Position numbers and translations under genes: made by a program. From Escherichia phage V18, in the sequence record NC_041937.1: 64,000 bases of DNA; one strand, written 5' to 3'. The notes under the pieces are model-generated. The model did not search any database, was not told where the DNA came from, and was given only the letters and a program-made list of their open reading frames with translations. Below are positions 30,937 to 36,197 of this stretch, piece after piece. Numbering within the stretch: position 1 is the first letter of the stretch; every line of letters starts with the position of its first letter.

Positions 30937-31263
30937 ATGGGTATACCGATCACTGTAAAAGAATTGAATGAACGTGATGCAGGCGGTCTATGGCCTGCAC
31001 GAAAAATACGCTGCGTCTATATGAAAGAGAATCTTGAACATCTTGATCAACAGATAAAGGTCGGCGATATTTTCGAGGTCTTCTATTCCAATCGGCGCAA
31101 CTGGGAAACCATTCAGCCTTCTGGTTTTGTTCTTGCCAAACTTGACACTGGAGAAGTGATTATCCCTGGGTTGGATATTGTCTTCGAAATTATCCAGGAG
31201 TGGGATCCGGATAAGATTAGATACGAAGAACTATTCGGTAAAGGTATTATCAAACCTGTGTGA
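30937..31263 (+). CDS. hypothetical protein
   Basis: 108 aa; RBS GAAGGAGA. Confidence 0.4.
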   Translation: MGIPITVKELNERDAGGLWPARKIRCVYMKENLEHLDQQIKVGDIFEVFYSNRRNWETIQPSGFVLAKLDTGEVIIPGLDIVFEIIQEWDPDKIRYEELFGKGIIKPV

Positions 31264-31271
31264 GGTGGATT

Positions 31272-31655
31272 ATGTCTACAAAGGCGGCTAAATACTCTTA
31301 CATGCCATCAACCTCTGCAGAGGTAGACTTTAGTTTCGATGTGTTTCCACTGTTTGAGGTGGTTCTGGCATACCCAACAATACTATCTACTCCTGAATCA
31401 CTTGTGCCTGTTAAGTTGCAGAACGCTATGCATTCTATGCACTACAACAATAAATGTAGGCACAGATGGTGTCAAGACGAGGAAAAAGATTTGGATAGTT
31501 TGAGGGATTTTGACAGTCACCTTTTGACACCTTTCAGCTACTCCAACCTTGATAAGCCTCATGGGTATAGCAAAATATCAAATTTAAGACACCTAGGACG
31601 CTCTGTGGCGTCCTTTTCTTTATCTGGTGCACGATTGCATACCTTGGACAGATAA
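31272..31655 (+). CDS. hypothetical protein
   Basis: RBS GAGGTGG before ATG 31272. Confidence 0.4.
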   Translation: MSTKAAKYSYMPSTSAEVDFSFDVFPLFEVVLAYPTILSTPESLVPVKLQNAMHSMHYNNKCRHRWCQDEEKDLDSLRDFDSHLLTPFSYSNLDKPHGYSKISNLRHLGRSVASFSLSGARLHTLDR

Positions 31656-31928
31656 TCCCGTTACAGAGCGTTTAAGAGCTTCCTACAAACAAATCTCTCT
31701 TTCGAGCGTAGCGAGAACGCACGTCCGTTTTGACCCAAATCACCATACGCTCGGATTTTAACCAAACCCTCGCGGCGTTTCTGTTGACACATTACCGCTA
31801 CCGTGATAGTATCCACACAGTTTGGAGAATATGGAATACACAATGAGAACATTGTCTGAAGTTTTAGTGGTGATCCTGATGATCATTACGTCTATAGCGG
31901 CTGTTGCCGGAATACTCACGGGTGGAAC

Positions 31929-32129
31929 ATGATCAACACACATGCATCTGAAGGAGTGACGACATGTAGCCTGGATGAGCCAGTTAAAGAGGAAAACTTA
32001 GATTCTGATGACTCTTCATCTTCGTCCCAGACAGATCCTGAGGCTGATGACCTAACGTGGGAAGACATCGTAGACATCTGGTTCTCTATTATGCCTGAGC
32101 ACGAAGAGTTCAGAGGTGGTAGACTATGA
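31929..32129 (+). CDS. hypothetical acidic serine-rich protein
   Basis: 66 aa ORF. Confidence 0.3.
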   Translation: MINTHASEGVTTCSLDEPVKEENLDSDDSSSSSQTDPEADDLTWEDIVDIWFSIMPEHEEFRGGRL

Positions 32130-32250
32130 AGCACCGAGCCCACACAGATTCCTCATGCTAAAGCATGGCCTGAAGAGGCAAACGTGCATAATTCCAGCGT
32201 ATTGGAACGTATAAAACCCTGTTCACACTCTCATTTCCAGAGGAGATTTC

Positions 32251-32466
32251 ATGAAGATAGAAATATTTGGTGGAGCTGACAACACTCGTGGCCTGATTTA
32301 CCTTGAATTTGATGAATCATACCTGCCAGAGGTGTTAAATATAGACTCTGTTGCTGAGGCTTTGGGAGTAAACCCTAAAGAACTCCACTCTTGTGCTGAG
32401 ATCGATGGTTGGGAAGAGACCATGAACATTGATTTCAGTGAAGTGGAGGATGAACCGCTAGACTGA
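32251..32466 (+). CDS. hypothetical acidic protein
   Basis: 71 aa; RBS AGAGGAG; MKIEIFGG start; last plus-arm gene. Confidence 0.4.
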   Translation: MKIEIFGGADNTRGLIYLEFDESYLPEVLNIDSVAEALGVNPKELHSCAEIDGWEETMNIDFSEVEDEPLD

Positions 32467-32593
32467 CGCACAATTAGCTGCCCGGCTAAAGTGCTGGAAG
32501 CACCTATAACACATCTTTCAACTAAATTTCCTACCACCACAATCACTTACCTCCCGCACATGACTGTTTGCTTGTTTAGTGAGCAGTCATGCC

Positions 32594-32621
32594 TTGACAT
32601 TCTTGCCTATCCTGATAAAAT
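32594..32621 (+). promoter_or_regulatory. sigma70-like promoter (TTGACA-16-TAAAAT) firing into ORF-free DNA
   Basis: -35 at 32594-32599, -10 at 32616-32621; no credible ORF downstream. Confidence 0.5.
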
Positions 32622-33160
32622 TAAGTTCTTCTCTTTTCTTTTACCGAGTAATTCGGGTTTTCTGTTCTCTTCGGTTTGAAGGGGTATGGAGATACACCTG
32701 AGTGAACAGGGTGAACAACCGAACCATTAGCTATGGCATTAGCATGGCGAAGCGGACGGGTGACGAAAGAGGGGCCGGAGGACACCAGTCACTGCCATAT
32801 GATATATGGGTGATAACCTGAAGAGTCTGAATAAGTGTTTAAGTACCAGTCAGAGGAAAAGGTGAATGGTAGCCGAAGGGGGGAGGGGGGTTTCTTGTAT
32901 CTTTAATTTGTATATTATGTATACACTTGTAAACCAATCTAATCTGAATCTGTTTACCACACAAAGCGGATAGAGACAAATATTGCCTATTAAACTTGAA
33001 TTATTTATAGAAAATACCACAACACCCCTTAAGTCTTTGATTTACACACAAATCCTACAGATATTCAACCTCCATATTTAACATACTTGTAACATATTCC
33101 ATACTCTACCTGTCTGATCAATTTCCCAACTACATTCTCATATTTTCCCTGTCTGTACTA

Positions 33161-33356
33161 CCCCTGCCCCGCCGGGAGTCCCGTCATATCTGGCTTTCCA
33201 GCAAATATCACACCCACAAATATCATTGCCTGAAGAGGGTTTCATCCCATAATACCTGCCTTACCTGAAGAGCGCTTCATACACCACGTAAATTTTTTAA
33301 TTGACCTCCCCCTGCCCCTCCGGAGAGGTTGGCTTTTCCCACACAGACCTGAAGAG
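33161..33356. repeat. cluster of short direct repeats
   Basis: cccctgcccc-g/t-ccgg-g-ag at 33161 and 33308; cctgaagag at 33229, 33264, 33348. Confidence 0.5.
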
Positions 33357-33976
33357 TCAGCCAGAAATATCTGAATAGGCCCGATCTGCCCAGTCAGGAG
33401 CCAGTAGCGACTGGAGTGCTGCCAGGCGGACGGAATGGGAATACTTCTCATTCTTATAACAATTCTCAAATATCGAGGCAGTGAGAGAAATTAATAGGCC
33501 AGGCCGTTCACACAGTGGCACAACATTTGCAACCTATCCTGTGGGGATGAATGAGAATACCTATCATTGTGAGAACTATTATCATTACGGGCAATTTAAC
33601 ATAATACCCATTATGCGCACCACTGGCGATACATACAGGGATTGATACCATGAGTTACAGTTTACACACATAACAATTATATTTCTTACTATTTGTGTGG
33701 GATATAGTTAGCAGCCAATAGATTAGATATTGACCTGTAGACTTCCAACCGTCTGGACGTCTAAACGCCCACACACCAAGGGTTATACATACATCGCTGA
33801 ATGTAAACAGGGCCGCAAAAATGCTACCATACCAGTTTGTAAATTTTTCATGCAGCACTTGACAAAGAGGAGAAAAACTTGTCTGACACAATGTCACACA
33901 ATATGACACTTTACACTGGACACACTAGGCACAAAAAAAAAAAACTGCAGTGACTAGGTCACCCCTTCAGGTGTTT

Positions 33977-34171
33977 CTATGACATAATATAAAAGCAGGG
34001 CAACTATTACAAATCTAAAGTTGCCTTGCTTGTTATGTCATGATTAACTAAATACAAGGCAACTATGATCTGATTAATAGTTTGCAGACAAACTATCACG
34101 GGGGTGATGGTTACTGCTTTTATATTATGTCGCGACTCCGTCGCGCCATGCCATTCGTTTGCATAGTTGCC
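33977..34171. repeat. palindrome-flanked iteron cluster
   Basis: 19-bp inverted arms at 33980-33998 and 34114-34132; GGCAACTAT copies at 33999, 34048, 34087 (variant) and inverted at 34017, 34163. Confidence 0.55.
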
Positions 34172-34824
34172 TTATTGTTACAGATAAAATAATTGTATTG
34201 TTAATTATTTCTTATCTTTCTATTAGTCATCTAATGATTCCAGTTAGTATAGTAACGTATAGTAAACATTAGACGACTAAATATTTCTCTGTTTATGATA
34301 ACTCACCGTAATAATTTCGGACTGTTTACGAAAAATGTTGACACCCTGGCTGATTTATGTTATGCAATTTAAACGAATAATTATTTTATGCAGGTATTGA
34401 CTATTCCGTTATTCTATGGTTGGAATAAATACTTAGCAGGCTATAGAATGGTGAGCGTACGTAAATTCTGAGATCTGTCGGCTATAGTTATACCCGATTT
34501 TTCACGTAGAACACGCTTTCGATGCTGTGTAAGTGTATGACTTATAAAGATTTTTAGTTGTTGACAAGATATTGGAGATGTGCATCAGGTTAAAATTTGT
34601 GCAATAGCGGCATTACGTGCACTTTTGGGAGAGAAAACGGGTAAAAATGGACTTGCTACCACACAATGAAAAATTATGCAATAGCTATTTTACATGTATG
34701 TTTGTACAGTGCGGGCAATTGATGGCTCGTCAATTATTCCACTTGCCAGGTAGGGCCGTTTATGGTAGGGGGAAGAGCAGACAAAAAGAAAGGGGCCTAA
34801 GCCCTTGATAATTCAGTTAAAAAA

Positions 34825-35244
34825 TTATAATGATTCGTATATTTCAAAAATCCGATTTGCCAGGTCGTTACGGTAGCGGAATTTTTCCTCACGTTTGATC
34901 ATCAGATCTTTAAAGCCATATTCTTTAAGCACTTCATTAACTTTATGGCGGCACACCTTCATATTATCTTGAGCGTCACCAATAAACTTGTTGCTGTGGT
35001 GCATTGCTTTAATTTCTTCTTCCAGGACCAGGGCAACTACCCGGACCGGATCAAGCTGGTAGGCGGTAACATCGATGCGGCATTGTAGACGGCTTTTAAC
35101 GTCTGCCACCGGATATACTGCAACCTCTTCCCCGTCAACATTGACAATAACTAGTTTACCATCGATCTCGAATCCTTTCGCCGCCGGACCGTGACAAAAA
35201 GCGTTATCAAAGCTATATGCCGGATTATTAGATTTAATGTTCAT
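34825..35244 (-). CDS. hypothetical protein (last gene of minus arm)
   Basis: 139 aa; RBS AGAGGTAAA upstream. Confidence 0.4.
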   Translation of the reverse strand: MNIKSNNPAYSFDNAFCHGPAAKGFEIDGKLVIVNVDGEEVAVYPVADVKSRLQCRIDVTAYQLDPVRVVALVLEEEIKAMHHSNKFIGDAQDNMKVCRHKVNEVLKEYGFKDLMIKREEKFRYRNDLANRIFEIYESL

Positions 35245-35388
35245 GGTGTTTTTACCTCTTAGTTAATTTTCTTACAACTTCCCTTCAAAAAAGAATATAG
35301 CAAAACTGCCGATCCCTGTCAACCAAGGATGGCATAATTTTTATGTGATCAAGGGGCTTTATTGCCCCTGACCATGTAACTTGTTGTA

Positions 35389-35652
35389 TTATTTGTTATT
35401 CATCCAGTTTTCCCAAGCTGCCTGATAATCTGCCTCACTGCGGCGGATCTCTTCTTGCTCTTCAAGCCGGATCTCTTCTTCCAGGTACCCCAAGATATCG
35501 GCTTTTTTGGTCTGGCGTAACATCCAATCATCTTTTTTACGGGTAAAGATCTTATATGCTTTCTCGCAAACCTCTTTTTTGCTACCTTTTTGGACTTTAA
35601 GAACTTTGTAGGCCATGTACTGAACTAGTTTGAGCTGATCAAGACGTTTCAT
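35389..35652 (-). CDS. hypothetical protein
   Basis: 87 aa; RBS AAAGAGGTAAA; GC hairpin in leader. Confidence 0.4.
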   Translation of the reverse strand: MKRLDQLKLVQYMAYKVLKVQKGSKKEVCEKAYKIFTRKKDDWMLRQTKKADILGYLEEEIRLEEQEEIRRSEADYQAAWENWMNNK

Positions 35653-35744
35653 GATGTTTACCTCTTTATGAGGTTCTGGTTTGGTGTGGGCCTTTTGGCC
35701 CGTGTCATTATCTTATTACTTACGGCGGCAAAATTCAAGTGTTT

Positions 35745-35987
35745 TTAATTGATAATCTTCCTCAGCTTGGAGTACAACCGCTCGATCATTTCGTTGGCAT
35801 TGGTGAAGCCATACCCTTGAGCGAACTCATCCGCGCCACCTTCGTGATCATGTTCTGCGTTCATCGCTTCCACAAAATGGAATTCAAGATTATTGAGGTA
35901 AGGGCTTGATGTTCCGTCCTCTTTTTCGATGAGATCCCAGATAGCATTAAAACGTGATTCAACTTCTTGATTAATCCAGCTTGACAT
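35745..35987 (-). CDS. hypothetical acidic protein
   Basis: 80 aa; RBS AGAGAGGAAA. Confidence 0.4.
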   Translation of the reverse strand: MSSWINQEVESRFNAIWDLIEKEDGTSSPYLNNLEFHFVEAMNAEHDHEGGADEFAQGYGFTNANEMIERLYSKLRKIIN

Positions 35988-36197
35988 AATGTTTTCCTCT
36001 CTTCTGGTTGTTGTGTGGGCACTTTTGCCCCTTCAAGATAAATAATATCCCACCACCTGGCAGATGTCAACGGTTTTTATAGTTTTTATATAACAGGCAC
36101 CCCCGGTGATTGTCTCCCCCCGTCGCCAGGTGCCACCCGTGAAACAAGTATAACAAAAAACAGGACAAAAACAAGCCCTGTTTTGTAGATATAAGGA

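Follow-up and report, generated by a model that had tools for sequence, protein, structure and literature searches.

A conserved same-strand array of short words beside the terminal repeat of Escherichia phage V18 and its relatives, a candidate packaging signal

A group of direct repeats in a non-coding stretch of Escherichia phage V18 is part of a larger array, i.e., an ordered set of words on one strand at 33158-33372, which stands just before the left boundary of the terminal repeat (DTR) as mapped by homology. All positions refer to the window, which is the whole stretch of 64,000 nt from NC_041937.1 that was analyzed. Because this conserved array lies just outside the DTR, the repeats most likely help the packaging enzyme to find and cut the genome ends. 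On balance, and with only somewhat more confidence than doubt, we read the array from comparative evidence as a signal for recognition and cleavage by the terminase where concatemer units meet. The repeats are genuine and not a product of chance. Their words, strand and order, and the distance of the word AAATATC to the end, are conserved across genera in the sequences compared.

Genomic setting of the array

The window belongs to the genus Vequintavirus, the rV5-like E. coli myophages; megablast returned 120 phage records with 90-99% identity. Two convergent gene blocks, of which the plus-strand genes stop at 32466 and the minus-strand genes begin at 34825, enclose a zone of 2.35 kb (about 32467-34824) that contains no credible ORFs. 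In the rV5 genome paper, this stretch is a grey 'non-coding' box between ORFs 163 and 164 without a function, and a 'non-coding' box of about 2 kb has been drawn on the maps of rV5-like genomes since 2013, with no function given. Small ORFs across the zone (e.g., 33242-33469 on the minus strand) were considered as coding sequences and rejected due to 1-nt and other non-triplet indels among relatives. Three records (PP554575, OR449013 and PQ511146) have 12-16 'hypothetical proteins' of 30-60 aa annotated over the zone, including the DTR and the array. Since relatives differ by non-triplet indels, we regard these tiny proteins as over-calls.

A permissive Rfam scan of 31000-36000 found no family at E <= 1, and the window contains no tRNAs. 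No intrinsic terminator, i.e., a GC-rich hairpin with a U run, was found in 33100-33430; the terminator-like signals nearest to the array are at 32644-32656 on the plus strand and at 33963-33949 on the minus strand. At the other side of the zone, just downstream of the first minus-strand gene, a 36-nt direct repeat occurs twice (34592-34704; 72% identical, 77 nt apart). Further, 19 GenBank records in MG065635-MG065674 are named 'Campylobacter phage' and are 90-97% identical to the window across the zone. Two of these were inspected and both are marked UNVERIFIED; the hosts given for this series are probably misattributed.

Genome ends and terminal repeat

A 459-bp terminal repeat at both genome ends has been published for Gotham (PMC7471380) and is annotated at both ends of its record. 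It aligns to 33425-33883 of the window over 459 columns with 94% identity and no indel. HdK5 and EdH4 have a redundancy of 458 bp, which agrees with Gotham (PMC6563267), and the genomes of the bov phages were oriented after PhageTerm analysis; fixed ends or repeats of 458-459 bp in vequintaviruses have been reported by three groups. In low-stringency blastn, five records (Gotham, HdK5, YN3, ECP2309, EcoIv14a_Aya) end at the equivalent of 33883 and two (bov10K2, bov22_2) start at the equivalent of 33425. The Gotham repeat maps only once in the window and, consequently, one DTR copy is present here, which corresponds to what a concatemer junction or a collapsed assembly would show.

Following the Gotham mapping, the left end would be cut between 33424 and 33425 in the context GTGCTGCCA^GGCGGACGGAA (33415-33434; ^ marks the cut), and the right end between 33883 and 33884 in the context TTGACAAAGAGGAGAAAAACTTGTC^TGACAC (33859-33892). 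We infer 33425 and 33883 as the end positions of phage V18. By homology, these are ends of the T7 type, with a repeat of a few hundred bp and two fixed cuts. Published statements to the contrary exist: rV5 was described as circularly permuted in its genome paper, one vequintavirus was called headful by PhageTerm, and Certreviruses were reported as permuted.

The preliminary description had suggested that short direct repeats of this kind may be terminase/pac recognition sites or mark a terminal-repeat boundary. With the Gotham DTR placed at 33425-33883, the flagged repeats are at a distance of 69 to 264 nt from the left DTR boundary, on its outer side, and the last of them is indeed just 69 bp away from the left genome end mapped by homology. 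Measured to the left cut, the array ends at 69 nt with its last CCTGAAGAG and at 53 nt with its last AAATATC.

Words of the array and their frequency

Reading of the sequence and a repeat finder placed all four flagged copies of CCTGAAGAG where they had been described, at 33229, 33264, 33348 and 32817 on the plus strand. For the C-rich repeat CCCCTGCCCCKCCGG, the placement at 33161 was correct, while the second copy starts at 33309 and not at 33308, as one extra C had been included there. The portrayal of the repeats as GC-rich within AT-rich DNA is valid against the left flank only, because this flank (32901-33157) has 31% GC but the window averages 43%; the flagged interval has 51.5% GC (C 34%, G 18%).

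In the 64-kb window, CCTGAAGAG occurs eight times compared to 0.52 expected, and none of 100 shuffles reached eight. Four of the eight copies are outside the ORF-free zone and all of these are located within coding ORFs; two were checked against the ORF list and are in frame as Pro-Glu-Glu. The four non-coding copies are found within 540 bp. The C-rich 15-mer is present twice (0.09 expected). A further word, AAATATC, was absent from the preliminary description; it occurs four times in 266 bp (33203, 33218, 33365, 33468; 0.07 expected), and all copies are on the plus strand.

The content of the array amounts to two C-rich boxes, two TGGCTTTYCC, three CCTGAAGAG and four AAATATC, one of the latter being within the DTR. 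Three CCTGAAGAG and three AAATATC are located at most 267 nt before the left end, and every element named in the following is on the plus strand. C-box 1 (CCCCTGCCCCGCCGG, 33161-33175) is followed by TGGCTTTCC (33191-33199), by the tandem pair CAAATATCA-N6-CAAATATCA (33202-33225, starts at 33202 and 33217), which is enriched, and by the first and second copy of CCTGAAGAG (33229-33237 and 33264-33272). C-box 2 (CCCCTGCCCCTCCGG, 33309-33323) has TGGCTTTTCC as its follower (33330-33339), and then come the third CCTGAAGAG and TCAGCCAG with AAATATC at 33365 (33348-33371 altogether). Within the DTR, CAAATATCG (33467-33475) holds an AAATATC that starts 43 nt from the left end. The fourth CCTGAAGAG (32817-32825) is an outlier, 608 nt before the left end and within a G-rich element that is conserved separately. 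The C-boxes and CCTGAAGAG are not independent of each other, since TGGCTTTYCC comes after either C-box (33191, 33330) and CCTGAAGAG comes next; together, the three parts make up a composite unit that is present twice, in a degenerate form with indels.

The base composition and strand of the array would also suit a signal in the RNA where the rightward operon ends, acting by Rho loading, processing or stability, which would stop transcription before the terminal repeat. The upstream genes have the plus strand as their sense strand and all words are on the transcribed strand, the 450 nt before the end have 29% C and 15% G, and no intrinsic terminator was found where the rV5 authors expected a bidirectional one. 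However, the bias of C over G is much weaker in other genera which keep the words, and composition cannot explain exact words of 7 to 9 nt or the spacing of AAATATC at +43. No stable or conserved fold was detected, either: the predicted RNA fold of 33150-33430 is no better than that of shuffled sequences (z = −0.11), and there is no Rfam match. We, therefore, consider a signal of this kind unlikely. A structured non-coding RNA was ruled out on the same two grounds, the absent Rfam match and a fold not above shuffles. Folded as single-stranded DNA, the surroundings of the left cut are only mildly better than shuffles (z = −2.1). A structural reading, i.e., hairpins at CCTGAAG, was rejected as well; by eye, KPP-1 has an 8-bp stem and one PVP-SE1 copy a 6-bp stem, and the other copies do not retain these stems.

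Conservation within Vequintavirus

Within the genus, the zone was aligned for 13 Vequintavirus sequences. Mean identity to the window is 91% for the array region (33158-33424), 93.5% for the DTR (33425-33883) and 95.6% for the last upstream gene. Variation in the array is mostly found in the spacers. In the 13 sequences, C-box 1, TGGCTTTCC, both CAAATATCA and the first CCTGAAGAG show no or almost no variation; C-box 1 belongs to the nearly invariant elements, TGGCTTTCC is kept, and the tandem pair and the first CCTGAAGAG are invariant. Copies 2 and 3 of CCTGAAGAG have single substitutions in one or two phages (for copy 2, one each in FV3 and PMBT16), and C-box 2 exists in two alleles, both of which are C-rich. 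In some phages, additional modules of about 20-70 nt are found between the units, and the indels in the spacers between modules measure 1 to about 70 nt. Since these include 1-nt and other non-triplet lengths, we can rule out that the array is coding. The segment 33377-33410 is replaced or expanded in several phages, and the cut context GTGCTGCCA^GGCGGACGG is kept in the genus.

Conservation beyond the genus

Even at low stringency, blastn did not align the ORF-free zone outside the genus and, consequently, the comparison across genera rests on words and on conserved end contexts. Equivalent zones in other lineages were located via the flanking genes and published ends. A protein-anchored search of IMG/VR found three relatives only. 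In addition, a pattern scan of IMG/VR for GACCTGAAGNGTCAGCC was tried and set aside; it yielded 26 matches, which were judged as a group, and all but one vequintavirus contig are seemingly chance matches on unrelated contigs.

The DTR of KPP-1 (Mydovirus) has 514 bp (116316-116829) and is situated in a convergent ORF-free zone like that of the window; its boundaries are matched independently by the record ends of KP12 and DP. Both cuts are recognizably homologous to those of the window, the left one being GTGCTA^GACGGACAG in KPP-1 and GCTGCCA^GGCGGACGG here, the right one CTTGACAAGGAGAGAGAATTGTGTT^TAGCAA in KPP-1 and CTTGACAAAGAGGAGAAAAACTTGTC^TGACAC here. End contexts recur in PVP-SE1, GEC_vB_MG and 4MG (Seunavirus), in A73 (Septuagintavirus) and in IMG2, a divergent metagenomic relative. 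In particular, the left context GTGCTA^GACGGACA is found in KPP-1, PVP-SE1, GEC_vB_MG and 4MG, and a context resembling the right end in KPP-1, PVP-SE1, IMG2 and A73.

In 500-bp segments around the left end, AAATATC and CCTGAAG are the only 7-mers common to four lineages; in 500 control trials, random segments taken from these loci shared 0.07 7-mers on average and 2 at maximum. AAATATC is found at exactly +43 in the window, KPP-1, PVP-SE1, GEC_vB_MG and 4MG, i.e., in Vequintavirus, Mydovirus and Seunavirus, and furthermore at +43/44 in A73 and at +38/39 in IMG2, for which the ends are inferred. Thus, the geometry agrees with that of a pac site, as the array adjoins the cut and a spacing is kept, with AAATATC at +43 in five lineages. 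The terminal repeats of Gotham, HdK5, EdH4 and KPP-1 are the same element as the DTR of the window, and KPP-1 shares both the cut context and AAATATC at +43. The DTR of vequintaviruses has already been published, the Vequintavirinae reports (Gotham, HdK5/EdH4, KPP-1) giving the repeat length only (PMC7471380, PMC6563267); the literature searched contained no description of the flanking word array, of its conservation throughout the subfamily or of the +43 rule.

Pairs of AAATATC, 15-23 nt apart, are also present in IMG2, A73 and KPP-1. The 9-mer CCTGAAGAG was detected in the ORF-free zone of five of six lineages, with one to six copies; its distance to the cut is not conserved (−77, −134, −107, −317 and −173; full range 63 to 608 nt). 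C-rich boxes are found at the equivalent place in IMG2, KPP-1 and PVP-SE1, and the best block common to the window and KPP-1 is GACCTGAAGAGTCAGCC. IMG2 has about 77% identity where it can be aligned, with the same module order and nearly the same spacings. PVP-SE1 carries five same-strand CCTRAAGWG, one CTAAAGAG variant and the C-box CCCACCCCTCCCCCGCCCGGAGGG before its homologous end, and A73 has its own array of five CCACAGAG copies. In all lineages, all copies of a word are on the same strand. The more distant relative IMG3 has no CCTGAAG; AAATATC-like words and a similar end context are kept.

Taken as chance matches or decaying duplications without any function, the repeats would fit the variation of C-box 2 and the modules gained or lost by indels within the genus. 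However, the shuffle tests reject chance, and the words persist in lineages where the surrounding non-coding DNA does not align anymore, so that conservation across genera contradicts this explanation, which we judge very improbable. The preliminary description had named two findings that would speak against a pac site or boundary array, namely genome ends far away and repeats absent from close relatives. Neither was observed: the ends are nearby, and the repeats are kept in the 13 Vequintavirus sequences and recur as words in other genera, so that the interpretation offered there is supported.

Other conserved elements of the ORF-free zone

Upstream of the array, the segment 32594-32892 starts with a near-consensus sigma-70 promoter (TTGACA, 16 nt, TG-n-TAAAAT; 11/12), followed by a G-rich element of about 265 nt, which is the best-conserved part of the zone (98.6% compared to 95.6% for the neighboring gene). 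The conserved stretch has a sharp start where transcription is predicted to begin (about 32628) and stops behind GGGGGGAGGGGGG (32891), and single-nt indels argue against coding. The relative IMG2 keeps the −10 box, several blocks and the equivalent of the fourth CCTGAAGAG in the homologue of this element, and a 5′ hairpin of the element shows compensatory changes in IMG2 (CCGA/TCGG vs CCAGAA/TTCTGG). No Rfam match and no E. coli homologue were found for the element, and its fold is no better than shuffles (z = −0.82). We propose 32594-32892, which holds the fourth CCTGAAGAG, as a candidate phage non-coding RNA.

The DTR itself contains blocks at 33506-33514 and 33594-33621 (ATTTAACATAATAC..TTAT.CGCAC and GTTCACACA) that are conserved in five of six lineages of different genera, and its right two-thirds align between Mydovirus and Seunavirus at about 74%. 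Based on these internal blocks and this alignment, the DTR carries functional elements of its own.

Just right of the DTR, the segment 33884-33980 is hypervariable in length among close relatives, between 48 nt (here) and about 250 nt (rV5), and has a mean identity of 65%. In the window, it comprises five to six (G)ACAC repeats, 12 consecutive A and a terminator-like hairpin on the minus strand (33949-33963); at the equivalent place, IMG2 has three AGGCATAC repeats. Given (G)ACAC here and AGGCATAC in IMG2, the right boundary has a lineage-specific repeat array of its own. Next to it, 33981-34180 contains a perfect 18-nt inverted repeat (33981-33998 and 34114-34131) with several nested ones, the hairpin ATCACGGGGGTGAT and the block GTCGCGACTCCGTCGCGCCA (34130-34149), versions of which are found in IMG2, A73 and KPP-1. 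A second module of conserved non-coding DNA, which might be an origin, is present here to the right of the DTR.

As the whole zone is conserved across genera, it probably has more than one function. This conservation, which includes the blocks within and right of the DTR, could also mean that the array words are iterons of a replication origin, or serve in end replication or recombination, with an initiator binding to them and unwinding the AT-rich neighbor. Short same-strand repeats do adjoin a stretch of 31% GC (32901-33157), and the cumulative GC skew turns at the ORF-free zone, where the GC skew reverses its sign. However, the rV5 authors ascribed this turn to the switch in transcription direction. 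Moreover, no initiator gene is adjacent, no mapped origin is available in this phage group, and AAATATC, being spaced at exactly +43, is linked to the formation of the ends. We, thus, regard iterons as rather unlikely.

Comparison with T7, T3 and other packaging systems

The closest analogue of the array are the SRR/SRL arrays of T7 and T3, which were read from the sequence records of these phages and which, for T7, the older literature equates with the PacB site itself. T7, T3 and the window have a short DTR with fixed ends in common (for the window, by homology). Likewise, each has an array in which a word of 7-9 nt recurs on one strand, within about 50-200 nt ahead of the repeat when viewed in the concatemer. 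Before the right terminal repeat, T7 carries CCTAAAGA (−107) and CACCTAAAGAGGGTC (−78). In T3, CCTAAAG is present four times between −152 and −46, with TTACCTAAAGTGG at −59 and TTGCCTAAAGAGA at −46 among these copies. The counterpart words in the window are TTGCCTGAAGAGGGT and TTACCTGAAGAGC, and exact CCTAAAGAG is found in IMG2, A73, PVP-SE1, T7 and T3. Hence, CCT(G/A)AAG(A/T)G of the window group and CCTAAAG(A/T)G of T7 and T3 are near-identical, and this includes the flanks (TTG/TTA before, GGGT after). SP6 has a different word. In T7, the packaging signal, consisting of PacB and PacC, is recognized in concatemers by the small terminase (PMC9860248).

There are also differences. T7 and T3 carry the word within the repeat and have a second array after the repeat, whereas no CCTRAAG is found on the plus strand in 33425-33883 or rightward of it. 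The fixed spacing to the cut is held by a second word, AAATATC, in the window group. Using tblastn and blastp, no similarity was detected between T7 gp19/gp18 and the large terminase of rV5 or its neighboring 89-aa gene, and phmmer found no gp18 relative in the window plus segments of Gotham and rV5, which together represent an estimated 97% of a genome (all but about 3.5 kb). According to Pfam, the large terminase of rV5 is Terminase_6N/6C, of which only the generic Terminase_6N is common with T7; the T7-specific nuclease domain is found only in gp19. In rV5 (NC_011041, 58027-60872), the annotated large terminase gene consists of three joined parts and encloses an HNH endonuclease gene, and it is preceded by two spanin genes and the 89-aa gene. 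This is the order of T7 genes 18, 18.5/18.7 and 19. We consider the shared order (small gene, Rz, Rz1, large terminase) a weak link between rV5 and T7. Judged by these comparisons, the junction in the window would work like that of a T7-type phage, although it falls outside the T7 family on two points, namely the copies within the repeat and in a second array, and the terminase similarity at the sequence level.

Several short, repeated protein-binding words at one or both flanks of the terminase cut are also known from lambda cosB, SPP1 pacL/pacR and P1 pac. These phages have cohesive ends or headful series and not a duplicated short terminal repeat, and their sites have no sequence resemblance to the array of the window.

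The near-same word (CCTAAAG and CCTGAAG, respectively) beside the terminal repeats of T7, T3 and rV5-like phages, which lack detectable terminase similarity yet have enterobacterial hosts in common, might indicate that the words are sites of a host or phage regulator apart from packaging, acting on transcription into the repeat or on the organization of the injected DNA end. The near-consensus sigma-70 promoter at 32594-32621 points at the array, too. However, no known host factor of such specificity was found, nothing similar to the array exists in 5,426 E. coli genomes, and its position goes with the ends in all lineages compared. Regulator sites are, in our view, quite unlikely. It is similarly doubtful that CCT(G/A)AAG(A/T)G represents one recognition code for T7/T3-like podophages and rV5-like myophages, the terminases of which have no detectable relationship. 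If it were true, there would be a shared reader, either a host protein or a very divergent small terminase, at enterobacterial junctions with short terminal repeats; alternatively, the packaging signal would have been exchanged between unrelated packaging machines or would have converged. The near-identity of the word to that of the T7/T3 array is an unexplained lead and not a result.

A packaging signal at the concatemer junction

Under the packaging reading, which we prefer, replicating DNA would be a head-to-tail series of unit genomes, neighboring units being separated by one copy of the repeat, and the array would form the recognition part of the packaging signal at this concatemer junction. 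A putative DNA-binding packaging protein, most likely the small terminase subunit, would bind the words, which have the same orientation on both sides of the cut. The large terminase would, thereby, be positioned to cut at CCA^GGCGGACGG (33424/33425) and at CTTGTC^TGACAC (33883/33884), with the repeat being duplicated by DNA synthesis, as assumed by analogy with T7-type phages. Words that extend across about 200 nt to one side of the cut, together with one at a fixed 43 nt on the other side, would be a fit for a multimeric packaging protein. The two boundaries differ in sequence and each of them is conserved, as in other phages with short DTRs. Some observations count against this reading: no small terminase was recognized in the rV5-like phage group, the copy number of CCTGAAGAG and its distance to the cut vary, C-box 2 has two alleles, IMG3 lacks CCTGAAG, one CCTGAAGAG is located 608 nt away in another conserved element, and published accounts of packaging in these phages disagree.

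Implications for rV5-like phages

Of about 120 deposited genomes, most have not been opened at their true ends. The conserved context offers a rule for opening assemblies at the true ends, which is A^G(G/A)CGGAC with AAATATC 43 nt downstream. For the many tiny ORFs annotated across the zone, the present results are a reason for doubt. Phages of the rV5 type are widely used against E. coli O157 and further pathogens, both in biocontrol and in therapy. With the ends placed in the 'non-coding' box and the conserved words around the left end named, this region becomes a testable packaging signal. Such a signal would be useful for constructing transducing particles or non-replicating derivatives of these phages, which has already been done for T7.
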